Shown: positions 2,979 through 18,217, counted from the first letter of the stretch. The stretch is DNA of 64,000 bases from Deltaproteobacteria bacterium (GCA_029262515.1 JAJCZH010000029.1:1434-65433); one strand, 5' to 3'. Notes: generated by a model from the letters alone, not told the origin. A program made the numbers and translations.

Positions 2979-3206
2979 TCACTCTGGCATCACCTCCTCA
3001 TGGCCTAAACAACCCTTCTTCGGGTCGAAGTTATCGCACTCACCGACGGGCATTACGTCATGACCCTTGTCGAGCAGCTCTATTAAATTCTTACGGGCCT
3101 CGATGGGACTCACAGGACTCCCGTCTTTATGTGTAAAGAAACCGAGATCCTCGTCTTTAAGTCTCAAGGCCCCACGTATGCTCTGGCTCATGTGTTTTCG
3201 CATCAC
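2979..3206 (-). CDS. Hypothetical small protein
   Basis: 75 aa ORF in a co-oriented gene train. Confidence 0.4.
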   Translation of the reverse strand: MMRKHMSQSIRGALRLKDEDLGFFTHKDGSPVSPIEARKNLIELLDKGHDVMPVGECDNFDPKKGCLGHEEVMPE

Positions 3207-5016: not shown

Positions 5017-5651
5017 TCACCCCCTACTTTGACGTCTAAGTTTTTTAGATTGTTGTTAATCCCCTCGATTAACATGTCTACGTCACACAACTCATCCTCG
5101 AACAGCAGTTTCACAGCCTGCAGGACTCTTGCTCTGCAGCTCTCGGTGAGGGGTTCGAGAACCCCTAAAACAGTCTTGAACGGTTCAAGGGGGCTGTCGG
5201 GTGCAGGAGTAACAACAACGGGTGGTATAGGATCATCAAGCGGAGCCTTCCCCTCGGATATAGGCGTATACGTTCCGCCGGTCTTTTTTTCCTTCTCAAC
5301 CGGTTTCTTCTTGGCCTTTTTGGATTTATTCTTGTGGTAATACTCCTTATTGAGACAGGCACGGCACTTGCCCTTCGTGCGGTTGAACCCTGAGAGAGCT
5401 TTCGAGGCTGGCGTTTTACAAACCGAACACTCAGGCTCTTTAGGCTCTGCGGGCTTACCCTTCTGTCCGCGACATACCAGGGATGTACAGCCTTTGGTCT
5501 TCTTCAAGAGCCCGCAGGTCGGACACTCAGCATCACCCGGTTTTGGCTCCTTAGGGTGCATCTCTGCATCCTCGCAATTCATGCAGTAGCGACTATGCTC
5601 CAGTGAATACTTCTTGCACCCCTCTGTCGCACAGATATCTCCGTTAGCCAT
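5013..5651 (-). CDS. Cys-rich multi-zinc-finger protein (several CxxC pairs) with a Lys/Pro-rich linker
   Basis: 'CATEGC', 'CMNC', 'CPTC', 'CSVC', 'CRAC' and further Cys in the first ~120 aa, then a 'KKAKKKPVEKEKK' linker. Confidence 0.55.
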   Translation of the reverse strand: MANGDICATEGCKKYSLEHSRYCMNCEDAEMHPKEPKPGDAECPTCGLLKKTKGCTSLVCRGQKGKPAEPKEPECSVCKTPASKALSGFNRTKGKCRACLNKEYYHKNKSKKAKKKPVEKEKKTGGTYTPISEGKAPLDDPIPPVVVTPAPDSPLEPFKTVLGVLEPLTESCRARVLQAVKLLFEDELCDVDMLIEGINNNLKNLDVKVGGE

Positions 5652-6027: not shown

Positions 6028-6702
6028 TCAAGAGGCTGCCTCCAGTACGCGCTTTACGCTGTTAGCGAACCACTCACCGCCCTTCTTTGTCGGGACATTG
6101 AACCTGTTCAGCTCGCGCGCAATTCCCTGATAACCGAAGTCTCTATCATCCATATCTATTATCTTGTCGATGATCTTCTGCTCTTCTTCATTCTCTACGA
6201 GCATGCCGTCGACAACATCGTATCCGTAAGATGCATGGTTATAGGCCACACCAGAGGCCTTCAGATAGGCAAGGGCGTCCGTGGTGCGCTCAGAGATGAG
6301 GTTGCGCTCCATCTCGGCACAGGCGGCCATAATCGTGAAGAAGAAGATACCCATTGCAGACTGGGTATCTATAGACTCTGTAACGGAGTGAAAGGCCACT
6401 TCGGCCTCGTTGAACTGACTTGCTGTATCGAGTGCGTCTTTAGCGTTACGGAAGAGGCGGTCGAGCTTATAGACTATAACGGCATCTATTACACCATGTA
6501 AGGCGGCGTCTATTACCGCATGCGCCCCGGGACGATTCTTTATATCCTTGCCAGAAATGCCCTCGTCTCGACAGATGTTTACCAGCTCCAGGTCGTGCAG
6601 CTCGGCGTAGGCCTTGATCTTCGCCTCCTGGTGGGCGATGCTGATGCCCTCCTTGGCCTGCTCCTCGGTCGAGACTCTTATATAACCGAAAGCCTTCTTC
6701 AT
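6028..6702 (-). CDS. Serine recombinase (resolvase/invertase family). ORF-track frame extends to 6750; the start is more likely 'MKKAFGYIRVS' at 6702.
   Basis: N-terminal 'GYIRVSTEEQ' catalytic-serine motif of resolvase-family recombinases. About 224 aa. Confidence 0.8.
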   Translation of the reverse strand: MKKAFGYIRVSTEEQAKEGISIAHQEAKIKAYAELHDLELVNICRDEGISGKDIKNRPGAHAVIDAALHGVIDAVIVYKLDRLFRNAKDALDTASQFNEAEVAFHSVTESIDTQSAMGIFFFTIMAACAEMERNLISERTTDALAYLKASGVAYNHASYGYDVVDGMLVENEEEQKIIDKIIDMDDRDFGYQGIARELNRFNVPTKKGGEWFANSVKRVLEAAS

Positions 6703-6956
6703 GCGCAGACCTCCTTCAGGTGAAGGTTCTTGTCGAGAGGGCGCCGGCAACGCCCGTTGTGCCGGTCCTTACCGCTGCCGCGCTTATGGGCCTTTGTGTA
6801 GTCTTCGATAATACGGCCGCACCTGTCGCATGTGGCCGGATGGACCGAAGTAATCTTGACGATAAAGACCACGCCGCACGGCTTGCAGATATAGTCGTTC
6901 TCCACACGGCCGTAACGCTTAACCCTTTTCGAATCGCAGACCGGGCAACGTCTCAT
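6699..6956 (-). CDS. Zinc-ribbon small protein
   Basis: 'CPVCDS...CKPCG...CDRCG' Cys pairs. Coupled to the recombinase gene. Confidence 0.45.
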   Translation of the reverse strand: MRRCPVCDSKRVKRYGRVENDYICKPCGVVFIVKITSVHPATCDRCGRIIEDYTKAHKRGSGKDRHNGRCRRPLDKNLHLKEVCA

Positions 6957-8296: not shown

Positions 8297-8387
8297 TTGT
8301 CAGTTGCGCGGCCCTCTGCTACGATTTAGCATGGCCACCTATTTACAACCTACATGGAACCTGATAAACTCAAACTCTAAAAGAGCG

Positions 8388-8432
8388 CAGACAGGCCCGA
8401 ATAAATCTGCCCGATCTCATCGGGCCCGTCTG
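8388..8432. promoter_or_regulatory. Imperfect 13-bp inverted repeat (cagacAggcccga...tcgggcccgtctg) in a divergent intergenic region. Possible operator or structured RNA.
   Basis: 12 of 13 positions are complementary with a 19-nt spacer. Located between divergent gene starts at 8296 and 8535. Confidence 0.3.
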
Positions 8433-8534
8433 CTGGTATCGAGCACCGATCGCGTCGGTAGGTGGGGCCTGCGACCGCCACCGGGCTCAATTCGTTTAAA
8501 AACTTGTTCTGGATCTTCTATATATGGAAAGCTT

Positions 8535-8771
8535 ATGTCTCAAGATATTGAAGAGCCTTATCTTTTAAAATGTCCTAAGTGCTATACTTCGCGTTCAGGG
8601 ACAGGGTGGTCGTCAATAGATGAAAAGCGTCCCTATTGCGCAGGTTGTGGCACACGTTGGATAGCAAAATGTCCCGGTTGCGGTATATTAATCGATCCAA
8701 CATTTCACTCGAAGAAGACTGAAAAAAACTGTGTATCTTGCGGCACATCGTTCTCAGCCACGCCTACCTGA
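8535..8771 (+). CDS. Small zinc-ribbon protein. ORF-track frame 8304..8771; the likely start is 'MSQDIEEPY' at 8535.
   Basis: 'CPKCYT...CAGCGTRW...CPGCG...CVSCG' shows four CxxC pairs. Confidence 0.35.
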   Translation: MSQDIEEPYLLKCPKCYTSRSGTGWSSIDEKRPYCAGCGTRWIAKCPGCGILIDPTFHSKKTEKNCVSCGTSFSATPT

Positions 8772-8922
8772 GTTTATAGGCGCAACAAGGGGCAAACTTA
8801 GCATCAGGATCGTTCCGAAAAATCTCTTTAATTTCTTCAGGGAACTCCATGCTACAGTTTGGGCACTTATCAGGCAGTACGAACATGGCTGTTTTGTTAT
8901 TTTTAAAGTTTTCATTATTCAT
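8764..8922 (-). CDS. Small Cys-containing protein (52 aa, 'MNNENFKNNKTAMFVLPDKCPNCSMEFPEEIKEIFRNDPDAKFAPCCAYKLR'), not in the ORF track
   Basis: Its ATG overlaps the stop of 8922..9182 (TGATG). Confidence 0.3.
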   Translation of the reverse strand: MNNENFKNNKTAMFVLPDKCPNCSMEFPEEIKEIFRNDPDAKFAPCCAYKLR

Positions 8923-9182
8923 CACAGACCTTTTGTTTGATGTGTCGGAGCACCCTGAGCTTCTGAATTTGAAGCATCCAGGAGATTACGCAGTCGCTCC
9001 ACAGAAGGGTTCGGAATAACTACGTGTCTGTGTAGCTTATTGTCCCAAACTCTTAACAAGGTGCCGTCTTGGCATATTGAATCGATAAGCTCCTGTGAAG
9101 ATAAGTCTTCACGGAACCGGTCAAGATCAATAATTTGAATGTTTACTGAGATTTTTTTGTAATGACGTTTTGGTTTACTCAT
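8922..9182 (-). CDS. Hypothetical small protein in the cro position, divergent from the S24 repressor
   Basis: 86 aa ORF. Transcribed divergently from 9272..9898 across an AT-rich 90-bp region. Confidence 0.45.
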   Translation of the reverse strand: MSKPKRHYKKISVNIQIIDLDRFREDLSSQELIDSICQDGTLLRVWDNKLHRHVVIPNPSVERLRNLLDASNSEAQGAPTHQTKGL

Positions 9183-9271: not shown

Positions 9272-9898
9272 ATGAGCACAATCGGTCAAAGACTTAAAAA
9301 TACTAGAAAAAAAATTCTACAAATTTCGCGTGAGAAGTTTGTAGAAGGGCTTTCTATTTCCACAAAAACCCTTGAAAACTACGAAAACGACGGCACCTCT
9401 CCGGATGCCAACTTCTTCACCCTGCTTTGGGGGAAGTACCACGATCAGCTAAGCATGAGCGACCTCGACTGGATTATGTGGGGCAAGCGCATGGAGTACG
9501 AAGTCGCAACAACAACCCCGGTTCTGGGGCGTGTGCCTGCTGGCTTTCCGGAAAACATAGCCGAAGAGGATATACTCGAGTACATAAGCATGCCCGGAGC
9601 GCCGAAGGAGGCCTACTCGCTCATCATCGACGGTAACAGCATGGCCCCCGATATTAAAGACGGCGACTATGTCATTTTTTTGCCTGCAGAGCGCACCAGT
9701 ACAAACCCCGGCGACATAGTCGTCATCAACGACGAGTTCGGGCAATCTATGATAAAGCGCTATGTCCTGAAAGATGGTCAGCCGTACTTGAAAAGCGACA
9801 ACCCCGAGTACCCAGGCTTCGAACCAAATGAACATTACACGGTAATTGGTAAGGTTATTGATGTGTGGAGCAGAAAGAAAATAAGGAGCGCACCGTGA
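9272..9898 (+). CDS. LexA/CI-like repressor with an N-terminal HTH and a C-terminal S24 peptidase domain
   Basis: 'IDGNSMAPDI' is the catalytic Ser motif and 'MIKRYV' carries the catalytic Lys. HTH at the N-terminus. Confidence 0.75.
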   Translation: MSTIGQRLKNTRKKILQISREKFVEGLSISTKTLENYENDGTSPDANFFTLLWGKYHDQLSMSDLDWIMWGKRMEYEVATTTPVLGRVPAGFPENIAEEDILEYISMPGAPKEAYSLIIDGNSMAPDIKDGDYVIFLPAERTSTNPGDIVVINDEFGQSMIKRYVLKDGQPYLKSDNPEYPGFEPNEHYTVIGKVIDVWSRKKIRSAP

Positions 9899-10710
9899 AG
9901 AAGTTGATAATACTGCTATTCGTTCTGGCTCTGCCCGCAATGGCTGAAGCAGCATCCTATAACAAGGCATCGATGTACAACCAACATGGCTTAAGTGCTG
10001 AAGCCAAAAAGGAACTCATCAACCTGATCTACAGCAAGACTACTACTGTCGAAAAAGCAAAGGCACATTATCTTCTAGGCACCATCGCTTTTAATGAAAA
10101 TAATGTAAGAGTTGCACTCAAAACTTGGAAAGACCTTGTCCGCAAGTACCCGAACTCCCAAGAAGCTACCTTAGTTAAAGACCGCATTAAAGAACTGTCA
10201 GATATCGTAGGTGATATTAAAGCCGATACCCTTAAAAACGCTCTGGCACAGACATATTTACGACATGGAGACTTTTGGACCAAGAATAAAGCGAGCAGGT
10301 TTACTATTGACTCAAGCTGGCTACCAAAAGTTGAAATGGCGTTAAAGTGGTACGATAAGGTGATTGCTAAATTCCCAAAAACAGACGCTGCCCGCGTTGC
10401 ATATGAGTCGAAGCTAATGACCTTGCTGGGATGGAAAGATAGAGGACGTAATGCAACTTCATACGGCGTAAGAAAGAGCCTGACAGAATATATGCCTCAA
10501 TTACTCGAAACTTTCGCGGCATTTGAAAAAGACCACCCGGATGCCTCCTCTCTTCAGGCTTATCGTTATCAGATCGCACAAGCGTATTGGGACAATAAAG
10601 ACTGGGATAAAACACGTGAATGGTTAAACACGGTTATAACAAAGGCGGGTGATGCAGATAGCTTTTACAAGGACGCAGCACAAAGACGCCTTGAAAAAGT
10701 CGTGTATTAG
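9895..10710 (+). CDS. Secreted TPR-like repeat protein. GTG start overlaps the upstream stop; the ORF-track frame begins at 9865.
   Basis: Signal peptide 'KKLIILLFVLALPAMAEA'. Helical-repeat composition with 'AKAHYLLGTIAF...' and 'AQAYWDNKDWDKTREWL'. Confidence 0.55.
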   Translation: MKKLIILLFVLALPAMAEAASYNKASMYNQHGLSAEAKKELINLIYSKTTTVEKAKAHYLLGTIAFNENNVRVALKTWKDLVRKYPNSQEATLVKDRIKELSDIVGDIKADTLKNALAQTYLRHGDFWTKNKASRFTIDSSWLPKVEMALKWYDKVIAKFPKTDAARVAYESKLMTLLGWKDRGRNATSYGVRKSLTEYMPQLLETFAAFEKDHPDASSLQAYRYQIAQAYWDNKDWDKTREWLNTVITKAGDADSFYKDAAQRRLEKVVY

Positions 10711-10816: not shown

Positions 10817-11230
10817 ATGCTCACCATCTTTGTATTATGGGTCGTACTCGCTGTCGTCGCTGGGATTGTCGCTAATAACAAGAACCGTAGCTCGGTAATT
10901 TGGGCCCTTCTCTGCTTCTTTCTCACCCCAATTCTGCTGCTTATACTCTTGGCCTTACCGAAGCTCGAACCCAAGGCGCCGCATCAAACCGGTAAGCTCA
11001 CGAGAAGGCAAGCATCGTCAGTCACACCTGCACCGATAATGGACGACCCGGGCGAGACTCGTAAATGCCCTTTCTGCGCCGAACAGATACTGGCCGAAGC
11101 GATAATCTGCAAGCATTGTGGCAAAGAGAGCAAGATAGAAAAAGTAGCAGAGAAGTGCTCACGCTGCGGCATCGAGGTACTTGAGGGAGCATCTGAATGT
11201 TTCAACGGTCACTCACAGGACTACTCCTGA
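10817..11230 (+). CDS. Membrane protein with a C-terminal zinc ribbon
   Basis: Two TM segments, then 'CPFCAEQ...CKHCG...CSRCG'. Strong RBS 'aagggagg' upstream. Confidence 0.5.
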   Translation: MLTIFVLWVVLAVVAGIVANNKNRSSVIWALLCFFLTPILLLILLALPKLEPKAPHQTGKLTRRQASSVTPAPIMDDPGETRKCPFCAEQILAEAIICKHCGKESKIEKVAEKCSRCGIEVLEGASECFNGHSQDYS

Positions 11231-11616
11231 TAGGGTTGCTCATTGCAGGGGGGACAGTTTTTGCCATATTGACACAGGGCGCAATTAACGCTTTCGCCGC
11301 GACCATGCACCCTGAGAAGACCTACCAGACCGCATGGTGTGACGAGCATAAAGGGGAAATGGAGTACGTCGTCTCTGGCGGATCCCGGGTTGATTGCCTG
11401 ACCGAGAAGTATGCTGTTGAGGTTGACTTTGCGCATAAGTGGCAAGAGGCGATCGGCCAGGCTCTATACTATGCGCGAAAGACCGACCGGGCCCCGGGCA
11501 TAGTTCTCATTATGGAAAAATCGGGCGACCACAAGTATCTCGGGCGGCTCTTCTATACCATCAAAGAACGAGATGAATTTATAAAGGTCTGGACCATCGG
11601 ACCAGGGGATCTATGA
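11197..11616 (+). CDS. Hypothetical exported/membrane-anchored protein
   Basis: N-terminal hydrophobic helix. Its 3' end 'KVWTIGPGDL*' is repeated as a scar at 12725-12761. Confidence 0.5.
   Translation: MFQRSLTGLLLIGLLIAGGTVFAILTQGAINAFAATMHPEKTYQTAWCDEHKGEMEYVVSGGSRVDCLTEKYAVEVDFAHKWQEAIGQALYYARKTDRAPGIVLIMEKSGDHKYLGRLFYTIKERDEFIKVWTIGPGDL
11578..11616 (+). repeat. Junction repeat copy A: 'ataaaggtctggaccatcggaccaggggatctatga', followed by the vestigial start 'atgagcattaaataa' (MSIK*) of the zinc-ribbon gene
   Basis: Near-identical to 12725-12764. The 'ggatctatga' junction recurs at 13721-13730, and a similar 'ggggagcctatgag' precedes zinc-ribbon copy 1 (12401-12420). Confidence 0.5.
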
Positions 11617-11626
11617 GCATTAAATA

Positions 11627-12112
11627 ATGCCAGTGTCTCTGGCAGTGAAAGGAGCGAGGGATTTGAAGAAGCTATTGATTCTTATAGGTGTGATATTTTT
11701 TATGGGGTGTGCGGCTGCACCTGTTCAACGCGCTGAACCTAAAACAATGGAGTTTCAGCAGCCTTTTGATAAGGTCTGGAGTGCCGCCGTCAGGATCATC
11801 ACTGTCGACAACGACCTGCCTATCCAGGTAATAGAAAAAGATTCCGGAATTATTACCACCGATTGGGTTACTTATGAACGCCCTGTTAAAGGCATGGGTG
11901 AGGCCTTCATGATATCCAGCTCAAATACTACTAACCCGAACATTCAGATACGTTACAAATTGAATATTAGTATTGAGAAGACCGACAACGGAACAGAGGT
12001 TTATATCCGCGATCATGTAGAGCGGTTCAGTGGTATGACTTGGAGTGTTACTAATGAACGCCCCCCGGCTCTTGAGAATATCGCGGCGGACCTGGCGGCT
12101 AGACTAAAATAG
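11627..12112 (+). CDS. Putative lipoprotein. Alternative TTG start at 11663 with RBS 'gaaaggag'.
   Basis: 'LLILIGVIFFMGC' is a lipobox-like signal peptide. Confidence 0.5.
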   Translation: MPVSLAVKGARDLKKLLILIGVIFFMGCAAAPVQRAEPKTMEFQQPFDKVWSAAVRIITVDNDLPIQVIEKDSGIITTDWVTYERPVKGMGEAFMISSSNTTNPNIQIRYKLNISIEKTDNGTEVYIRDHVERFSGMTWSVTNERPPALENIAADLAARLK

Positions 12113-12123
12113 GAGATGGACCT

Positions 12124-12399
12124 TTGGCTCTTATACAATGTCCCGAATGCAATAAAGATATCTCTGACCAAGCGGTAGCCTGCCCCCAATGCGCCCACCC
12201 AATAAAAGCCGTAACCATTGAGGCGACCGGAAAGCGATGGAAGGGTATACAGCTTATCTGTGCCCTATTTATTATAATCGGCGCTTTCTGGGCAGCGAGC
12301 AATACTCAGGGGGGGCCAGCGTTCGGTGGTATTCTTGTAGCGGTGGGGCTTATCGGTTTTATAGTAGCCCGACTGGGCGCATGGTGGGGGCACGGTTGA
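12124..12399 (+). CDS. Zinc-ribbon membrane protein (TTG start)
   Basis: 'CPECNK...CPQCAHP' then two TM helices. RBS 'aggag' 8 nt upstream. Confidence 0.45.
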   Translation: MALIQCPECNKDISDQAVACPQCAHPIKAVTIEATGKRWKGIQLICALFIIIGAFWAASNTQGGPAFGGILVAVGLIGFIVARLGAWWGHG

Positions 12400-12414
12400 T
12401 ATTATGGGGAGCCT

Positions 12415-12564
12415 ATGAGTATTAAAACCATAGACCTGACCCTCAAATGCCCGTCGTGCTCTCACGAGTGGACTGAGCACCTCGAAGTTGGAGAGATTCT
12501 CTTACGTCCACCGTGCCCGAAGTGTACCGACCAGCCAGTTTATATGCTGAAGATTAAAGCTTGA
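12415..12564 (+). CDS. Small zinc-ribbon protein, paralog copy 1 (49 aa, MSIKTIDLTLKCPSCSHEW...CPKCTDQPVYMLKIKA); not in the ORF track
   Basis: CxxC-x17-CxxC. Has two paralogs at 13727 and 15504 (about 70-80% nt identity by eye). Confidence 0.5.
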   Translation: MSIKTIDLTLKCPSCSHEWTEHLEVGEILLRPPCPKCTDQPVYMLKIKA

Positions 12565-12628
12565 GGCCGCCGATGAGACGCCTCCTTATAACAATAAAGG
12601 CAGTAACCATGCTTAGGGAGCTCAGAAC

Positions 12629-12733
12629 ATGAAGAGGTTGCTGGTCTTATTTTTTGTTCTGACTCTGCCCGCACTGGTTGTGGCCGGCGATTCTCCCGTT
12701 ATTAAGCGTTCAATCTTTGGACTCTACCTATAA
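12629..12733 (+). pseudogene. Truncated remnant (34 codons) of a secreted-protein gene paralogous to the 5' end of 9895..10710
   Basis: 'atgaagaggttgctggtcttattttttgttctgactctgcccgca' is homologous to 'gtgaagaagttgataatactgctattcgttctggctctgcccgca'. The ORF stops inside the junction repeat. Confidence 0.4.
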
Positions 12734-12764
12734 AGGTCTGGACTATCACCCGTGAGGATCTATG
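12725..12764 (+). repeat. Junction repeat copy B: 'ataaaggtctggactatcacccgtgaggatctatga', with the ATG now used by the 300-aa cargo gene
   Basis: Matches the 3' end of 11197..11616 plus the zinc-ribbon start context. Confidence 0.5.
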
Positions 12765-13664
12765 AAATCTATAAATGATCTAAATAGACAACTCGTACAG
12801 ATTAAACAAATTTTTCTTCATGGAAAGAAGCATGCTATTAGTAACAACGCCCTCGACAGGCTTCACTCTATAATTTCTTTAGATACAGCTATAGAATACT
12901 TCCTTGTTACTATCATCCACCAAGCTGATATAAAATTACCCCGCAAGGATGAGAACAACTTTGATTCAATCTTCGAAAACGCAAATATAGGGCTTAAAAA
13001 AATTAGAAATAATTCCATCGAACTACCCCATAAAACCGTCATTACAAGTAGAGTACATAAAGTACGAAACGGAGCTTGTCACAGCGGCAATATACCTAGC
13101 ACTGAAAGCATCAATACAGCCTTAATCCACACCGAAACATTTCTTAATGAAACCTTCAAGCTTTGCTTCAATAAGGCTTTTGGTGAGGTTTTTCTTGCCG
13201 ACATGATTGAGCACCAAGAAATCTGCAAGTATTTCAAAAAGGCAGAAGTAGCCATGGAAGAGAATGATCTTGAAAGTTTAACTGTTGAACTCGCAACTGG
13301 CATCCAAATTTTTAAGAATAAAGTCACCTCAGAACTACCAGGCTGGCTAAAGCAAATGGAAAGAACAGACGTCTCCACCACACTTGATGATAACCAAAGG
13401 ATACAAACTGCTCTGGGAGACATAGTAGAGTCGGTTTGCCTCCTTCGAAATTTTACAGTTTTCATTAGCCTTGGATTTACATTCCACGATTTGACACTTT
13501 TTATAGCAAAATTCCCAATTATTAATTTGAGTGTTAGCGGTAATATTCTTGGTGTACATCACGGCCGCATAAAACCCACTATGAGTGAGTGCGTTCACCT
13601 CATGAATGCCTTTTACAACATGATACTTTCATATCAGTCCAGCAATAAATCTATATGCCCATAG
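12762..13664 (+). CDS. AT-rich cargo gene 1: hypothetical 300-aa protein with a candidate HEPN-type Rx4H motif ('RNGACH'). Putative Abi-like RNase.
   Basis: Low-GC coding sequence. 'VHKVRNGACHSGNIP' at about residue 100 fits the R-[N]-x3-H HEPN signature. No other motif recognized. Confidence 0.5.
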   Translation: MKSINDLNRQLVQIKQIFLHGKKHAISNNALDRLHSIISLDTAIEYFLVTIIHQADIKLPRKDENNFDSIFENANIGLKKIRNNSIELPHKTVITSRVHKVRNGACHSGNIPSTESINTALIHTETFLNETFKLCFNKAFGEVFLADMIEHQEICKYFKKAEVAMEENDLESLTVELATGIQIFKNKVTSELPGWLKQMERTDVSTTLDDNQRIQTALGDIVESVCLLRNFTVFISLGFTFHDLTLFIAKFPIINLSVSGNILGVHHGRIKPTMSECVHLMNAFYNMILSYQSSNKSICP

Positions 13665-13726
13665 AAGATAATCAAAGAAACCTAGGCTTACCTCATGTAT
13701 CGAAACACTTTCATCCCTGAGGATCT

Positions 13727-13876
13727 ATGAAAGCCAAAACCATCGACCTGAACCTTAAATGCCCGGCCTGCTCTCACGAGTGGGCGGAGCGCCTCGATAC
13801 CGAGGGCGTATACCTCAACCCCGTCTGCCCGGAGTGTACCGAGCAGCCGGTCTACATTCTAAACATTACGGTCTAA
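13727..13876 (+). CDS. Small zinc-ribbon protein, paralog copy 2 (49 aa, MKAKTIDLNLKCPACSHEW...CPECTEQPVYILNITV); not in the ORF track
   Basis: Preceded by the 'cctgaggatctATG' junction. Its 3' half is nearly identical to copy 3. Confidence 0.5.
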   Translation: MKAKTIDLNLKCPACSHEWAERLDTEGVYLNPVCPECTEQPVYILNITV

Positions 13877-13970: not shown

Positions 13971-15431
13971 TTGATGGAATATTTTAAGCTTGGAGACATA
14001 TTTTTAGGTTTGAATGACGGAAAGAAGGAGGCATTAATTAGAAGTGATTTTGAAAGATTTTTTTATGATCATGAAAACATTCATGATCAAGTTATGAAGC
14101 CTCAAAATTTTTTGATCCTAGGTAAAAAGGGTTCTGGGAAAACAATTTTGGCTGAATATATAAATAAAACTTCTAAAAAGGATCCGCTGTGGTTCAGCGA
14201 GATAAGATCTTATAAAGATTTTAAATTTCATGAATTAGTCCAACTAAAAAGCGATGATATCAAACCTAATGAATATATTTCAATATGGGAATGGGTAATT
14301 CTATTAGATTTGGCAAGGCTTATACTACAAGATCAAGGTATCGACAATGTTGAGCTACGCAATAAATTAGAAAGTTTTTATACAAATAATTATTATTCAA
14401 TTGATATTGACTCTGGAAGGGTTGTTGAAATTACCAAAGAAAACCAAATAACTGGTACCATTCCAACTTCAATCGTAAATTTATCAGCGGGGCATGCCTC
14501 TAAATCAACAAAAGTTTCTGGAAGTTATTTTAATTATTTAGAAGGTTTGAGAGAAGTTGTGCTTGGCTTGCTAGAAGGATCGAGCAGTAAATACACCGTT
14601 TTTTATGATGAACTAGATGATCGCTTTAGAGATAATGAGTTTTATAAAGATGGTATTATCAGTTTGATAAAAGCAGCTGATAAGGTTAATTTGGAACTAC
14701 TGAGAAGAAATGTCGATGCCAAAATATCAATTTTGCTAAGGTCGGACATTTTCTACATACTTAATGACCCCGATCTTAATAAGATAAAAATGGATAATTC
14801 CTTGGTAATCGATTGGGGTAATATTGTGTCACAACAATCTCCTCTTTTTAAGTTGATTCTATCAAAGATCAGGACGTCTCTACCAGCCATAGAAAAGAAA
14901 AGTGATGATCAACTTTTTTCTTTATTGTTCCCTCAAGGAATTAAAGGTATTGATCCCGAGAGGTATATACTTGAAAGGACTCTCTTCCGCCCTCGGGATG
15001 TAATAACAATGTTGAACCTAATAATAAAAAAATATCCGAAGACTGGTTATTTTGGCTGGAAGGGTTTTATAGATATTAAGAAAGCTTATTCAGAGTATTT
15101 TTTTCAAGAAATAAGGAATGAGTTGTGTGGACATTTGAGCGATAAAGAAATAGATCAATCAACATTAATGATTAAACAATATAATAAGCACTTTTTTTAT
15201 TTTGATGAAATCAAGGAGTACCACAAGAAAAATATCGCAATCTATCCAGATATAAATTTAGAGAAAATTTTAAGATTATTTTTCAAATTTAATATAATAG
15301 GAAATACGTGGTTCAACAAATATAAAAATAGAAACTACTATTGTTGGGCTTATCGGGATAATAAGGCGGAAGTCGACTTTAAGAAGAAGTTTGTCATTCA
15401 TCTAGGCTTAAGAGAAGAGCTATCACTATAA
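13971..15431 (+). CDS. AT-rich cargo gene 2: KAP-family-like P-loop NTPase (putative defense/abortive-infection ATPase)
   Basis: Walker A 'LGKKGSGKT' near residue 52. Walker B 'VFYDELDD' about 160 aa later, which is the long A-B spacing typical of KAP NTPases. 'FRPRDVITMLNLI' resembles the KAP 'PRxIKRxxN' motif. Very low GC. Confidence 0.6.
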   Translation: MMEYFKLGDIFLGLNDGKKEALIRSDFERFFYDHENIHDQVMKPQNFLILGKKGSGKTILAEYINKTSKKDPLWFSEIRSYKDFKFHELVQLKSDDIKPNEYISIWEWVILLDLARLILQDQGIDNVELRNKLESFYTNNYYSIDIDSGRVVEITKENQITGTIPTSIVNLSAGHASKSTKVSGSYFNYLEGLREVVLGLLEGSSSKYTVFYDELDDRFRDNEFYKDGIISLIKAADKVNLELLRRNVDAKISILLRSDIFYILNDPDLNKIKMDNSLVIDWGNIVSQQSPLFKLILSKIRTSLPAIEKKSDDQLFSLLFPQGIKGIDPERYILERTLFRPRDVITMLNLIIKKYPKTGYFGWKGFIDIKKAYSEYFFQEIRNELCGHLSDKEIDQSTLMIKQYNKHFFYFDEIKEYHKKNIAIYPDINLEKILRLFFKFNIIGNTWFNKYKNRNYYCWAYRDNKAEVDFKKKFVIHLGLREELSL

Positions 15432-15503
15432 ACCCTCATTAGTAACGCTGTGATGGCCTGCCGTACAGCTCTTCATTCGGGCGGCCATCTACCCAAGGAA
15501 TTT

Positions 15504-15647
15504 ATGAAGACCATCGACCTGACCCTAAAATACCCGAAGTGCTCTCACGAGTGGATAGTGCGCCTCGATGCCGAGGAGGTCTACCTCAACCCCGTCTGTC
15601 CAGAGTGTACCGAGCAGCCGGTCCTTATCCTTAACATCACGGTCTAA
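15504..15647 (+). CDS. Small zinc-ribbon protein, paralog copy 3 (47 aa, MKTIDLTLKYPKCSHEW...CPECTEQPVLILNITV). The first Cys is replaced by Tyr.
   Basis: Inside ORF-track entry 15450..15647. Homologous to copies 1 and 2. Confidence 0.45.
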   Translation: MKTIDLTLKYPKCSHEWIVRLDAEEVYLNPVCPECTEQPVLILNITV

Positions 15648-15751
15648 GCCAGAGAACAGCATTCAAACCTCATTATCCAAATTTAGCATGATCAAGAGTA
15701 CTTCCTGTAGTCCGCACATTCCAACCACGCTTCCACATGCAACACTTCTAC

Positions 15752-15796
15752 CGGAAATAAACAAAGCCCACCAGTCATTACGACCAGTGGGCTTCA
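15752..15796 (-). terminator. Hairpin ('aagcccac'/'gtgggctt', 8-bp stem) with a T-rich tail on the minus strand. Likely terminator for the PEP-CTERM gene.
   Basis: Lies between convergent genes. The minus-strand read gives a stem-loop then 'tttgtttatttcc'. Confidence 0.35.
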
Positions 15797-15817: not shown

Positions 15818-16471
15818 TTACTTCTTAAACCTTCTTCTCACAAACCCAAGACCTGCAAGGCCACTTCCGAGAAGGAGGAGGGTTGAGGGTTCTGGGACTG
15901 AGGCAAGAGTAATCGTAGCATCAACTGCCGTCCATCCGTGTTCGGTGTTACCTCCGTTATTTGTAAGCAGAAAGTCAACATGGTTCCCCGCAACTAGATC
16001 AAGGTTGAGCAGAGAGAAAGATGCTGTATCCAAATAGGTAGTAATGTAATCGCTAAACACAACTACACCGTTGATGGCGACATAAACGCGGTTATTAACG
16101 CTTCGGTTGTCAGTCCCAGTGAAAGCTCCTGTCACGTCATAGTTACCCGCCGTTGAAGCGGTCCAGCGCACCACTGGAAAACCATTCGAATTGTCTTTCG
16201 CCCACAAATGCGGACCATAAACAGCCCACTGGTCTGCAATACTCGGACCACCGTGCCCGTAGTTGCCCAGAAACCAACCGTCTGACCAACGTACGTTCAT
16301 AACATCTATCGTGCTAGCAGTCACGGTGGTCGTTCTTCCATAAGTCCAGTCGCCATTTGGGTTGGTAGTAGTCGAGTAGTCGCCTGAGATTGAGGCGGCG
16401 TTTGCGCTCTGAGCCAGAGTAAATCCGAAACAGAGTACCAGGGTTAAAATAGCGATATACATTTTTTTCAT
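15818..16471 (-). CDS. PEP-CTERM sorting-domain secreted protein
   Basis: N-terminal signal peptide. C-terminal 'VPEPSTLLLLGSGLAGLGFVRRRFKK' is the canonical PEP-CTERM exosortase signal (PEP motif, TM helix, Arg cluster). Confidence 0.7.
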   Translation of the reverse strand: MKKMYIAILTLVLCFGFTLAQSANAASISGDYSTTTNPNGDWTYGRTTTVTASTIDVMNVRWSDGWFLGNYGHGGPSIADQWAVYGPHLWAKDNSNGFPVVRWTASTAGNYDVTGAFTGTDNRSVNNRVYVAINGVVVFSDYITTYLDTASFSLLNLDLVAGNHVDFLLTNNGGNTEHGWTAVDATITLASVPEPSTLLLLGSGLAGLGFVRRRFKK

Positions 16472-16928: not shown

Positions 16929-17993
16929 TCACAGCAAATTGATCTCGTCATGCGTCTCTTCTATCGGTATATGAGCGTAATGCTTTGTCGTTACATCCAC
17001 GCTTGAATGGCCGAGGTACTGGCTCACAAGATAGATGGATACTCCCCTCCGGAGAAGGTGGCTACCGAAAGTCTCACGAAACGTCTGTATGGTGAGCCCC
17101 TCAACATCAATTCCGGCAACCTTGCCTATGGTCTTCAACTTACGGTTCAGGTTATTAGCTCTCGGATCCCCGTCTTTTGTAGGAAAGCACCACTTGCTAT
17201 CAGAATCCATTGCCAGGAACAGCTCACGCAGCTCCCTGTGCAGTGGAATCTTCCTCTCCTGATGATCCTTGATCTCATTCTCTTCTTTGCTCCGTACCAG
17301 CAGGTAGCCCTCATCGAAGTTAATGTCTCTCGGCTCCAGGTGTATTAACTCCCCGAACCTCAGGCCGGCGTAGTAAGCTGTGGCGAAGAGCGGGTAAAAG
17401 TCGGGATCCCGCTTCTTGATTGTTTTGAGCAAGGTGCTTATGTCTTTTAATGAAAGGTCCCTGAAGAGCTTCTTTGTAGGCTTGTCTGCCCGGACTTCCT
17501 TCGCAGGGTTGTCCGGTATATAACCCCTCTTCATGGCATAGCCCAGCACGGCCCTTAACGCCCTCAGGTCTGCACGCGCGCCGCCCGGGGTTTTCTTTCG
17601 TGCTTTTCCACCTTCTTTCTTGGCTCTACTATAAAAGCCCTCTTTTCTCTTATTGTAAAAGATCTCTACGGTATCGATATCTATTTCGGATATAAGCTCG
17701 ATACCCTCGTCTTCACAGAAATCAACAAAGATGCGCTTGCGCGTCCGGTACCATCGTTTTGTCGCTTCTCGAGGCGCTCGCTTCTCAATATATGCATCAA
17801 AAACCTCAGCGACCGACTTTTTTAATATGAGATGTTTGGACCGGTGCTTCTGTCTGCCCTCGAGTTCCTCGTAGTCCCGCAATAGGGCCGAAGCTGCGGC
17901 CTTTGCCGTTACCCTCAAAGATTTCTGAGCAGACACGCCGCCGTCCACATAGCCGACCCACCAGATTTTACCGCGCTTATAGATGTAAGCCAT
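16929..17993 (-). CDS. Tyrosine site-specific integrase (phage integrase family)
   Basis: C-terminal catalytic region '...HLLRRGVSIYLVSQYLGHSSVDVTTKHYAHI' carries the R...H-x-x-R...Y pattern. It lies directly next to the tRNA gene. Confidence 0.85.
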   Translation of the reverse strand: MAYIYKRGKIWWVGYVDGGVSAQKSLRVTAKAAASALLRDYEELEGRQKHRSKHLILKKSVAEVFDAYIEKRAPREATKRWYRTRKRIFVDFCEDEGIELISEIDIDTVEIFYNKRKEGFYSRAKKEGGKARKKTPGGARADLRALRAVLGYAMKRGYIPDNPAKEVRADKPTKKLFRDLSLKDISTLLKTIKKRDPDFYPLFATAYYAGLRFGELIHLEPRDINFDEGYLLVRSKEENEIKDHQERKIPLHRELRELFLAMDSDSKWCFPTKDGDPRANNLNRKLKTIGKVAGIDVEGLTIQTFRETFGSHLLRRGVSIYLVSQYLGHSSVDVTTKHYAHIPIEETHDEINLL

Positions 17994-18140: not shown

Positions 18141-18217
18141 TGGCTCCCGGGGAGGGATTCGAACCCCCGACAAGGTGATTAACAGTCACCCGCTCTGCCA
18201 GCTGAGCTACCCGGGAA
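18141..18217 (-). tRNA. tRNA-Asn (anticodon GTT)
   Basis: Reverse complement 'TCCCGGGTAGCTCAGCTGGCAGAGCGGGTGACTGTTAATCACC...GGTTCGAATCCCTCCCCGGGAGCCA'. 7-bp acceptor stem, anticodon loop 'CTGTTAA', T-loop 'GGTTCGAATCC', 3' CCA. Confidence 0.8.

Follow-up and report, generated by a model that had tools for sequence, protein, structure and literature searches.

Lambda cI-rexAB and lactococcal sie2009, of which sie2009 lies between repressor and integrase, are accessory loci comparable to the one described here. Arrays of orphan toxin/immunity modules lie downstream of cdiA and rhs genes, and each of these stacked, variable modules retains a short fragment of the conserved upstream gene, which is usable as homology for later rearrangement. 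The idea of moron accretion is said to come from Hendrix and colleagues. Hotspots of anti-phage defence genes and morons are known from temperate phages and satellites, with examples in P2 and P4 (PMC9122126, PMC13586616), and small non-coding remnants in such hotspots have been ascribed to intense recombination (PMC13586616). Phages evolve as mosaics when illegitimate or relaxed homologous recombination joins their genomes and selection retains the products whose genes are intact (De Paepe et al. 2014, PMC3945230).

We present here a prophage-like element that is inserted next to a tRNA-Asn gene. At its lysogeny end, repeated junction strings remain from conserved prophage genes. The element is probably a temperate phage-like one that is integrated at this tRNA and occupies position 1 to about 18.1 kb of the window, by which we mean the whole 64,000-nucleotide stretch of DNA that was analyzed. 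No direct repeat of the tRNA-Asn 3′ end (att) was found within the window, so the element continues past the window start. Its gene order is S24 (CI-type) repressor, TPR protein, membrane zinc-ribbon protein, gene X, cargo, and integrase, and it also encodes a CII-like gene, a primase, an SSB, and two recombinases, one serine and one tyrosine. The backbone is common to the element and its relatives, which are designated below by L numbers. Its features are as follows.

9272 to 9898, plus strand: CI/LexA-like repressor with HTH and Peptidase_S24 domains (Pfam Peptidase_S24, 1.7e-18)
9895 to 10710, plus strand: secreted TPR protein (Pfam TPR_6, TPR_2)
10817 to 11230, plus strand: membrane protein with a double zinc ribbon (Pfam Zn_Ribbon_1, DZR), the conserved neighbor upstream of X
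11197 to 11616, plus strand: gene X, with a membrane helix at its N-terminus and a PD-(D/E)xK-like fold, the conserved left anchor of the hotspot
15762 to 15796, unstranded: strong, terminator-like hairpin of 16 pairs between the third small zinc-ribbon gene (ZR3) and a convergent PEP-CTERM gene
16929 to 17993, minus strand: tyrosine integrase (Pfam Phage_integrase, 3.3e-24), the right anchor of the hotspot
18141 to 18216, minus strand: tRNA-Asn (ARAGORN and Rfam), the integration site and element boundary

The repressor gene opens the lysogeny operon; its stop codon overlaps the start of the TPR gene (GTGA), and its position is the same in L008, L015, and L048. Zinc-ribbon genes precede X in L009, L015, and L038, and the closest relative of the integrase is in L048 (7e-90), whose integrase is of the same type. 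The hairpin was called on the minus strand, with a T-rich tail after the stem, and its inverted repeat was also seen by blastn; it is likely the end of the operon transcript. An Rfam scan returned nothing except the tRNA.

Gene X has the restriction-endonuclease-like alpha-beta-beta-beta-alpha-beta core fold. E75 is present in all of 64 X sequences, and D66 and K81 in nearly all; the spacing of these putative catalytic residues, D-x8-E-x5-K, is non-canonical for D...(D/E)xK. Searching viral contigs for X with a single sequence found nothing, and an alignment-based search of viral contigs placed it on 253 of them. The membrane zinc-ribbon protein and the membrane-anchored, nuclease-fold protein X form an uncharacterised conserved pair that may have a role in superinfection exclusion.

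Between X and the integrase lies a hotspot for accessory genes, fixed in position by conserved core genes on either side and variable in content among relatives. The integrase directly follows X, with no cargo, in L008, L009, and L015. After X, L021 carries ThsB_TIR, 8xMP, and the integrase; L048 carries two Abi_alpha genes, a HicA-like gene, and the integrase; and L014 carries a 169-aa protein followed by a 957-aa SMC_N/AAA protein (PHP/SMC-type ATPase). Defence-type domains in the relatives' cargo include Abi_alpha, ThsB_TIR, and AAA_21/AbiEii-type domains. The initial annotation had proposed looking in relatives for alternative cargo at the same junction, and such cargo is present, being of TIR, Abi_alpha, or SMC type, or absent altogether after X. 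Within the window, the interval contains three copies of a small zinc-ribbon gene (ZR) alternating with other genes.

11663 to 12399, plus strand: lipoprotein (11663 to 12112) and zinc-ribbon/TM protein (12124 to 12399), with Pfam Lipoprotein_18 and Zn_Ribbon_1 matches, both weak
12415 to 12564, plus strand: ZR1, 49 aa, zinc-ribbon gene copy 1
12762 to 13664, plus strand: cargo 1, an orphan protein of 300 aa, GC 37%, starting at the junction ATG
13727 to 13876, plus strand: ZR2, zinc-ribbon gene copy 2
13974 to 15431, plus strand: cargo 2, a P-loop ATPase of the Sll1717 family, 485 aa, GC 31%
15461 to 15666, plus strand: zinc-ribbon unit 3, comprising a 43-nt leader, the ZR3 open reading frame (15504 to 15647), and a tail of about 20 nt

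Of the blocks that separate X from a ZR copy, the lipoprotein and zinc-ribbon/TM pair comes first. No homology links this lipoprotein to the gene that follows X in L014, although 58 nt after X are common to the window and L014. Cargo 1 had no match in a family search and none in an HMM search even at an E value of 10. HEPN domains are marked by an Rx4-6H motif within a four-helix bundle; the single homologue of cargo 1, in L037 (61%), conserves its Rx4H motif RNGACH, and an AF2 model of cargo 1 is helical but unusable at a pLDDT of 48; no function could be assigned from families, solved structures, or this model. Cargo 2 matches NCBIfam NF047389 (1.6e-87; 294.5 bits against a curated cut-off of 75; residues 12 to 483 of 485) and phrog_13260 (3e-76). 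Its family occurs in unrelated phages at accessory-gene positions, with homologues in Klebsiella phage Kp4865-2 and Lactococcus phage CAP. Both cargo blocks are AT-rich and compositionally foreign (GC content, 0.37 for cargo 1 and 0.31 for cargo 2; ZR units, 0.49 to 0.56; host, 0.51). PADLOC gave only weak matches for cargo 2 and none for cargo 1. The cargo is probably expressed in the lysogen and probably has an anti-phage function.

The small zinc-ribbon gene is a real, very rare gene under purifying selection, with dN/dS values of 0.08 to 0.28 and differences biased to the third codon position. ZR relatives were absent from viral contigs; a word-indexed protein search recovered only ZR2 itself, a genome scan only unrelated CPxCSHEW zinc fingers, a metagenome scan one true relative (L023), and an exhaustive profile search one further cluster (P0122). 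L023 is also the closest relative of ZR1 (76% nucleotide identity; dN/dS, 0.08). The whole 206 nt of unit 3 are 82% identical to L033 positions 9960 to 10163. In L014, just the last 14 ZR codons are retained, directly after the cargo, and the X/ZR junction is thus an insertion point that has been used repeatedly. From the four contexts available, namely the window, L014, L023, and L033 (with L034 and L035), ZR would originally have stood next to X.

The junctions between these blocks carry three further features.

11613 to 11627, plus strand: four-codon stub ATGAGCATTAAATAA (MSIK*), a possible remnant of a zinc-ribbon gene start
12629 to 12765, plus strand: scar, composed of a TPR-type start and signal peptide, a 48-nt middle, and an X-type 3′ end
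13707 to 13730, plus strand: X-type 3′ end and ZR leader, 24 nt, reading TFIPEDL*, serving as the direct repeat to the right of cargo 1

The last 37 nt of X (11580 to 11616) are the master copy of the junction. Three exact copies of the 10-mer GGATCTATGA occur in the 64-kb window, at 11607, 12756, and 13721, all on the plus strand, against 0.12 expected; none of 100 shuffles gave three. When the two regions were compared (3.2 by 3.6 kb), the X 3′ end matched 12729 to 12765 over 37 nt (81% identity; E, 4.6e-5), and the start of the TPR gene (9896 to 9946) matched 12630 to 12680 over 51 nt (75%; blastn E, 5e-6). These two matches are collinear, in the order and orientation of the intact module. 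A third match joins the flanks of cargo 1, 12742 to 12774 and 13707 to 13739 (33 nt; 82%; blastn E, 4.5e-4); the junction copies either side of cargo 1 are direct repeats of about 26 to 33 nt. The main matches of this comparison thus have E values of 5e-6 to 4.5e-4, and the initial annotation, which had made its case conditional on exceeding chance similarity, was right about the repeated strings, about the signal-peptide fragment akin to the TPR start, about the junction ATG initiating the 300-aa gene (cargo 1 begins at that very ATG), and about the string before zinc-ribbon copy 2, which is an exact GGATCTATGA at 13721 with ZR2 starting at 13727. The similar string that it saw before copy 1 (ggggagcctATGA) has only CTATGA and a purine-rich ribosome-binding site in common with the junction and is not significant.

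Within the scar, the TPR-type part spans 12630 to 12680, the middle 12681 to 12728, and the X-type part 12729 to 12765, reading IKVWTITREDL*. The X-type part contains 15 exact bases and also matches the X genes of L008, L014, and L021. The first 51 nt of the TPR gene are the source type for the TPR-type fragment, which is a single 51-nt match within a signal-peptide region of biased composition. No TPR homologues were found in the fetched relatives; the TPR gene itself is variable, and the TPR-type fragment therefore has no cross-check there. The middle was tried as a remnant of the X 5′ part and is not claimed as such: its match to L014 is marginal (p about 0.02), and its match to the X of the window lacks significance. 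These comparisons support reading the strings as genuine pieces of the start of the TPR gene and the end of gene X, in the order of a second operon copy that has been gutted. A scan of 65 other X-bearing loci for a further copy of the X 3′ end found 0 scars.

The four zinc-ribbon codons that had been read after X match the ZR1 start at 13 of 14 bases, but the stub alone has an E value of 7.4; it is plausible as a zinc-ribbon start only from context, through the ZR 3′ fragment of L014. An X-3′-like leader of about 26 nt is common to ZR2, ZR3, and the ZR copies of L023 and L033, so that a leader of the ZR2 type also precedes ZR in the latter two loci. Taken singly, neither of the 24- to 26-nt leaders of ZR2 and ZR3 matches X significantly, and they could be ZR's own conserved leader instead of X remnants. 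Counted as X remnants, these sequences are unequal in length (about 24, 37, and 43 nt), and in each of them the following gene's ribosome-binding site and ATG are preserved.

The hotspot was probably filled stepwise from diverged relatives by recombination, each step bringing foreign cargo. In the ancestral state, the lysogeny operon would have run from a CI-like repressor through the TPR and membrane zinc-ribbon proteins to X, with X followed directly by ZR, stop and start overlapping (ATGA), and then by the integrase. Several separate recombination steps with diverged relatives would have filled the stretch from X to the integrase, every added piece beginning inside a relative's operon and carrying foreign, AT-rich cargo. 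Four stacked operon tails would be left over: X, the lipoprotein, the zinc-ribbon/TM gene, and ZR1; a TPR fragment, an X fragment, and cargo 1; an X fragment, ZR2, and cargo 2; and an X-like leader with ZR3. Only recombinants that kept the last 24 to 40 nt of X would have survived, and the junctions look recurrent because those nucleotides hold the ribosome-binding site and ATG from which the next gene is translated. Selection that keeps translation signals intact explains the recurrent junctions as well as does the recurrent stop/start breakpoint that had been put forward; the X/ZR junction was repeatedly used, but with remnants of unequal length a mechanistic breakpoint is not required. What the data show are the homologies, the variability of the hotspot, the coding status of ZR, and the foreign composition of the cargo, whereas the order of events, the mode of recombination, and the role in defence are deduced from them.

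It is unlikely that the module (secreted protein, X, and ZR) was duplicated in tandem in place and that the duplicates then diverged, underwent internal deletions, and were overwritten by cargo. The order and orientation of the fragments are those of the intact module, and three ZR copies lie on one strand, as such a duplication would leave them. The three copies are, however, only 68 to 84% identical in nucleotides, with dS ranging from 0.45 to above 1. ZR2 is as close to L033 as to ZR3 (83.7% in both cases; ZR3 and L033, 82.3%), and ZR1 is nearer to L023 and L033 (about 75 to 76%) than to ZR2 and ZR3 (68 to 70%). The present distance matrix suggests non-clustering of the window copies when set beside the outside copies. 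An ancient duplication would need unusually long survival in a region of fast turnover. Because the ZR copies are as far apart from one another as from copies in unrelated metagenomes, and the cargo is AT-rich, the data point to stepwise capture instead. The initial annotation's duplicated and overwritten module therefore stands as a gutted second operon copy and falls as an in-place event.

A more elaborate form of capture, in which the X-3′/ZR unit would be a portable homology anchor with which the phage lineage captures, stacks, switches, or sheds defence cassettes by short-homology recombination, is improbable. The locus would then be a homology-guided cassette array, its logic comparable to that of integrons or cdi/rhs orphan arrays, and the zinc-ribbon protein itself might be part of the process.

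It is quite unlikely that ZR is a functional partner, as regulator or antitoxin, of each cargo gene, in which case the array would consist of successive two-gene systems. Purifying selection acts on ZR and each cargo gene adjoins a ZR copy, but L037 diverges about 30 nt past the stop of its cargo 1 homologue and continues with another lipoprotein gene instead of ZR; in Lactococcus phage CAP, the cargo 2 homologue has no ZR nearby; ZR stands alone beside host or IS genes in L023 and L033; and ZR3 has lost a zinc ligand, its first Cys being replaced by Tyr.

We regard dedicated cassette capture, with the X-3′/ZR unit serving as a recombination site that is integron-attC-like or used by the element's serine or tyrosine recombinase, as very unlikely. 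A conserved unit of about 200 nt does alternate with unrelated cargo, direct repeats of 26 to 33 nt flank cargo 1, and the element encodes two recombinases. Against this, the ZR units as single strands fold no better than shuffles (z, −0.94 to +0.44), ZR evolves as a protein-coding gene, and the differing remnant lengths imply that no crossover point is fixed. Relatives without ZR (L015 to L017) conserve the serine recombinase, the integrase sits at a tRNA as an ordinary phage integrase does, and among 65 other X loci 0 contain the repeated unit.

Convergent or constrained translation-initiation regions (Shine-Dalgarno, spacer, and ATGA) plus a generic signal peptide are a very improbable source of the short similarities, and for the X fragment this reading is already largely refuted: the common core GAGGATCTATGA does hold the ribosome-binding site and start codon, the ZR2 and ZR3 leaders lack individual significance against X, and other signal peptides of the operon start similarly, but the scar at 12729 to 12765 runs 25 nt above the ribosome-binding site into X coding sequence, matches L014 X at 19 of 19 positions, translates to the conserved X C-terminus, and belongs to two collinear fragments with E values of 5e-6 to 5e-4 beside the 10-mer excess.

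Read as stepwise capture, the locus documents three or more gene captures, one after another, at a single prophage position, and it shows which few flanking-gene nucleotides are always retained. Cargo 2 and the orphan cargo 1 are candidate defence genes, and the interval from X to the integrase is a new hotspot that could be mined for defence genes in little-studied environmental bacteria.

Like integrons, the locus has unrelated genes in one orientation, a repeated unit between them, and a tyrosine recombinase in the element. Unlike in integrons, the repeated unit is a coding gene under purifying selection with no attC-like hairpin, the cassette boundaries have no fixed core site, and the only tyrosine recombinase, with SAM_5 and catalytic phage-integrase domains, lies convergent at the array tail beside tRNA-Asn and not at the array head next to an attI site, where an IntI-type integrase would be. 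The stacked modules with short upstream-gene fragments resemble the cdiA and rhs orphan arrays by analogy of layout, whereas the locus has no toxin/immunity pair or large core gene and its fragments are just 24 to 37 nt long and 81 to 88% identical. With mosaic phage evolution it shares joints at gene boundaries, diverged partners, and short imperfect homologies at the joints; it differs from that model in that no Rad52-like recombinase was identified in the part of the element inside the window, early region included, and the mechanism is one that we infer. The closest likeness is to the P2- and P4-type hotspots, in the fixed position between core genes of a temperate element, content wholly different among close relatives, cargo of abortive-infection, TIR, or ATPase types, compositionally foreign blocks, and small non-coding remnants. 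It is unlike them in belonging to an undescribed element family of environmental bacteria, in being anchored by X and a tyrosine integrase, and in that cargo is stacked, not swapped, and legible core-gene fragments are kept. The locus is a defence/moron hotspot of known kind, a well-preserved example of an ordinary process, and leaves current concepts of phage mosaicism unchanged.

The junctions belong to a plus-strand operon that begins with a repressor gene and heads toward a tyrosine integrase gene. Minus-strand genes to its left encode a regulator resembling CII/CP76, an HTH protein of CI type, a small serine recombinase, a primase of DnaG type, and an SSB-like protein. Features of the operon and the right end are as follows.

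9272-9898, plus strand: repressor (HTH and Peptidase_S24)
9895-10710, plus strand: secreted TPR protein
10817-11230, plus strand: membrane double-zinc-ribbon protein
11197-11616, plus strand: gene X, left anchor of the hotspot
11663-12112, plus strand: lipoprotein
12124-12399, plus strand: zinc-ribbon/TM protein
12415-12564, plus strand: ZR1, first copy of the 49-aa zinc-ribbon gene ZR
12629-12765, in the plus-strand operon: scar (TPR-type start and X-type 3′ end)
12762-13664, plus strand: cargo 1
13707-13730, in the plus-strand operon: X-type remnant
13727-13876, plus strand: ZR2
13974-15431, plus strand: cargo 2
15504-15647, plus strand: ZR3 (open reading frame)
15762-15796: strong hairpin
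15818-16471, minus strand: PEP-CTERM gene, convergent with the operon
16929-17993: tyrosine integrase, adjoining the tRNA-Asn 3′ end
18141-18216, minus strand: tRNA-Asn

The whole window was searched for a second copy of the tRNA-Asn 3′ end, and none was found; the element therefore extends past position 1. It contains two recombinases, the tyrosine integrase and the early-region serine recombinase (6028-6750; Resolvase domain, 240 aa), the latter conserved in related loci L015-17. Between the integrase and the cargo array the element also carries a gene for a PEP-CTERM sorting-signal protein, probably a further lysogenic-conversion gene because such proteins need a host exosortase. Small zinc-ribbon (CxxC...CxxC) proteins are unusually dense in and around the lysogeny operon (8304-8771, 8764-8925, 10817-11230, 12124-12399, and the ZR copies). 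An invariant 22- to 23-nt stretch, GGGTCGAAGTTATCGCACTCACC, within a ~100-nt conserved early-region segment (window 3022-3045; L015 ~1048-1071) lies again ~350 nt before the solitary ZR gene of L033 (~9599-9622) and of L034; it could belong to a small conserved gene or serve as a regulatory site.

The strings quoted in the initial annotation were found in place. A repeat search of the window recovered the three ZR copies (145-150 nt each) and matched the start of the TPR gene to 12630-12680 (51 nt, 75%), the X 3′ end to 12729-12765 (37 nt, 81%), and 12742-12774 to 13707-13739 (33 nt, 82%). These short matches were borne out by a blastn dot-plot (9.2-12.4 kb versus 12.4-16.0 kb) at E values of 5e-6, 4.6e-5, and 4.5e-4, respectively, the next best hits being at 0.28 or worse. 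The TPR-start and X-end matches are collinear, each at a gene end. There are exactly three copies of the 10-mer GGATCTATGA in the 64-kb window, all on the plus strand and within 2.1 kb (expectation, 0.12 copies; three copies reached in 0 of 100 shuffles). Two further likenesses are weak: that claimed upstream of ZR1 amounts to CTATGA plus a purine-rich ribosome-binding site, and the stub of four codons that follows X (11613-11627) shares 13 of 14 bases with the beginning of ZR1, on its own an E value of 7.4. An imperfect direct repeat, GACCATnGACC, flanks the ZR start codon on both sides (window 13700-13760 and 15475-15530; L033 9975-10020), its upstream copy encoding the X C terminus (WTIGP) and its downstream copy the ZR N terminus (KTIDL); this may be chance or a hint that the ZR start derived from the X end.

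X belongs to an uncharacterized, sizeable, phage-borne family, with homologs in >120 protein clusters and with relatives carried by 253 viral contigs of IMG/VR, and has no match in Pfam, NCBIfam, PHROG, or PADLOC. A confident structure model from 64 sequences (pLDDT 94.6) places an N-terminal membrane helix before an alpha-beta-beta-beta-alpha-beta core, and a membrane anchor plus a restriction-endonuclease-like fold are predicted for X with high confidence. Foldseek of the model against PDB returned nothing significant. Among the 64 sequences E75 never varies and D66 and K81 hardly do; all three are candidate catalytic residues. A membrane zinc-ribbon protein lies directly upstream of X in several relatives, and the pair (10817-11230 and X) may have a role in superinfection exclusion. 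The X C terminus (...VWTIGPGDL, then stop) is conserved down to nucleotides in L008, L014, and L021. Scar positions 12729-12765 read IKVWTITREDL, then stop, and match X of the window and of these three loci above every shuffle, with 19 of 19 bases identical to X of L014; the segment is a genuine piece of an X gene.

Differences among the three ZR copies and one outside copy fall mainly at third codon positions, and ZR is a protein-coding gene because its dN/dS is 0.08-0.28. In ZR3, Tyr replaces the first zinc-binding Cys (KYPKCSHEW) and two N-terminal residues are missing; this copy may be decaying, though its nearest outside relative (protein cluster P0122, L033) is intact. The family is very rare: a word-indexed protein search returned ZR2 itself and nothing else, scans of viral contigs and genomes gave no true relative, a metagenome scan gave one (L023), and an exhaustive profile search of 1.84 billion representatives added one cluster, P0122, on L033-35. 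ZR is absent from all 80 fetched viral X loci. L014 keeps the last 14 ZR codons (ELTKQPVFILNITV, then stop) directly after its cargo, with 91% identity to ZR2 over 35 nt, and its cargo is flanked by X and a truncated ZR. A ~26-nt X-3′-like leader (consensus gACCATcgaCCnGAGGATyTATGA) precedes ZR2, ZR3, and the L023 and L033 copies, and is present even without any X gene. In L023 and L033 the ZR unit adjoins host genes or an IS3 element, and L033 also holds a remnant of the element's early region; both loci look like decayed elements. The L014 remnant, the leaders, and these contexts link ZR with X.

The gap between X and the integrase is a variable hotspot. The integrase follows X at once in L008, L009, and L015-17, and in L015-17 the X stop and integrase start overlap as ATGA. 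X is followed in L021/22 by a ThsB_TIR protein, an 8xMP membrane protein, and the integrase; in L048 by two Abi_alpha proteins (1.7e-45 and 6.2e-27), a HicA-like pair, and an integrase adjoining a tRNA; and in L014 by a 169-aa protein and a 957-aa protein with SMC_N/AAA_15/AAA_21 domains. Related sequences thus carry other cargo at this junction, as the initial annotation had led one to expect. The integrase most like that of the window (7e-90) is found in L048, which also has the window's backbone (repressor, secreted protein, lipoprotein, and X). The window lipoprotein and the L014 169-aa protein are not related. A small hairpin, GCCAGTGTCTCTGGC (window 11628-11644), the ribosome-binding site, and the next gene's first codons are common to the window and L014 (~5630-5650); because these match and the downstream genes are unrelated, the post-X breakpoint lies a few codons into a signal peptide.

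Cargo 2 encodes a full-length Sll1717-family P-loop ATPase (NF047389, 294.5 bits against a cut-off of 75) that also matches phrog_13260 and has homologs in Klebsiella phage Kp4865-2 and Lactococcus phage CAP; in phage CAP it is the last gene, after the lysin. Cargo 1 is a helical, 300-aa orphan with a single homolog among ~15 billion proteins. Its RNGACH (Rx4H) motif, kept in that homolog, suggests a HEPN-type RNase, unconfirmed by HMMs (no family match even at an E value of 10) or by the structure model (pLDDT 48, unusable). Their position and the cargo of relatives point to a possible defense role for both.

The module of secreted protein, X, and zinc ribbon had been proposed to have duplicated in place before cargo overwrote it. 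Over the same 141 nt, identity is 83.7% for ZR2-ZR3, 83.7% for ZR2-L033, and 82.3% for ZR3-L033; ZR1 shares 75.9% with L023 and 75.2% with L033, against 70.2% with ZR2 and 68.1% with ZR3. The window copies are as distant from each other as from outside copies, dS among them is 0.45 to 1.3, and GC swings sharply along the array (ZR units, 0.49-0.56; cargo 1, 0.37; cargo 2, 0.31; host and rest of element, 0.51), all of which argues against duplication in place. The cargo 1 homolog, L037 (61%), is alignable to ~30 nt past the stop and then has a different lipoprotein gene, so the cargo 1 block ends on the right just ahead of the X-type remnant of 24 nt (13707-13730). The ZR3 unit aligns with L033 across 15461-15666, which puts the right-hand limit of the cargo 2 block ~30 nt past the cargo 2 stop.

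The simplest account is that the resident element recombined repeatedly with incoming, diverged relatives, possibly through tandem integration with deletion afterwards or through two crossovers in each event, one homologous and the other illegitimate. The region would then represent, left to right, four operon tails in series: the first intact, with ZR1 at its end; the second gutted, with a start of TPR type and an X gene's final 37 nt joined to cargo 1 at the junction ATG; the third with ~24 X-type nucleotides ahead of ZR2 and cargo 2; and the fourth with a degenerate leader and ZR3. Every survivor would keep an X piece bearing the next gene's ribosome-binding site and start codon, and such a selective filter is the best explanation for the clustering of joints at the stop/start overlap. 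At the conserved X end, recombination through short homology is possible; Rad52-like phage recombinases carry out relaxed homologous recombination (PMC3945230), and none was found in the part of the element within the window. The filter is favored over a site-specific enzyme because remnant lengths differ, there is no fixed crossover point, and 0 of 65 other X-bearing loci have a second downstream copy of their own X 3′ end.

The array is not an integron, as it lacks two defining features (attC hairpins between cassettes and an IntI-type integrase beside attI at the array head). ZR units folded as single strands did no better than shuffles and showed no attC-like structure. Orphan cdi/rhs arrays resemble the window array in layout alone. 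Lambda and lactococcal phages carry genes between repressor and integrase, and the window array is similar. In layout and behavior, the locus is like the accessory/defense hotspots of temperate phages and satellites, among them those of P2/P4 (PMC9122126), which show rapid swapping and small remnants ascribed to intense recombination (PMC13586616). The locus is a well-kept record of accretion, an ordinary process, in an element family that is undescribed; less ordinary are its by-products, namely the uncharacterized X family, the very rare ZR gene, and the orphan cargo gene.
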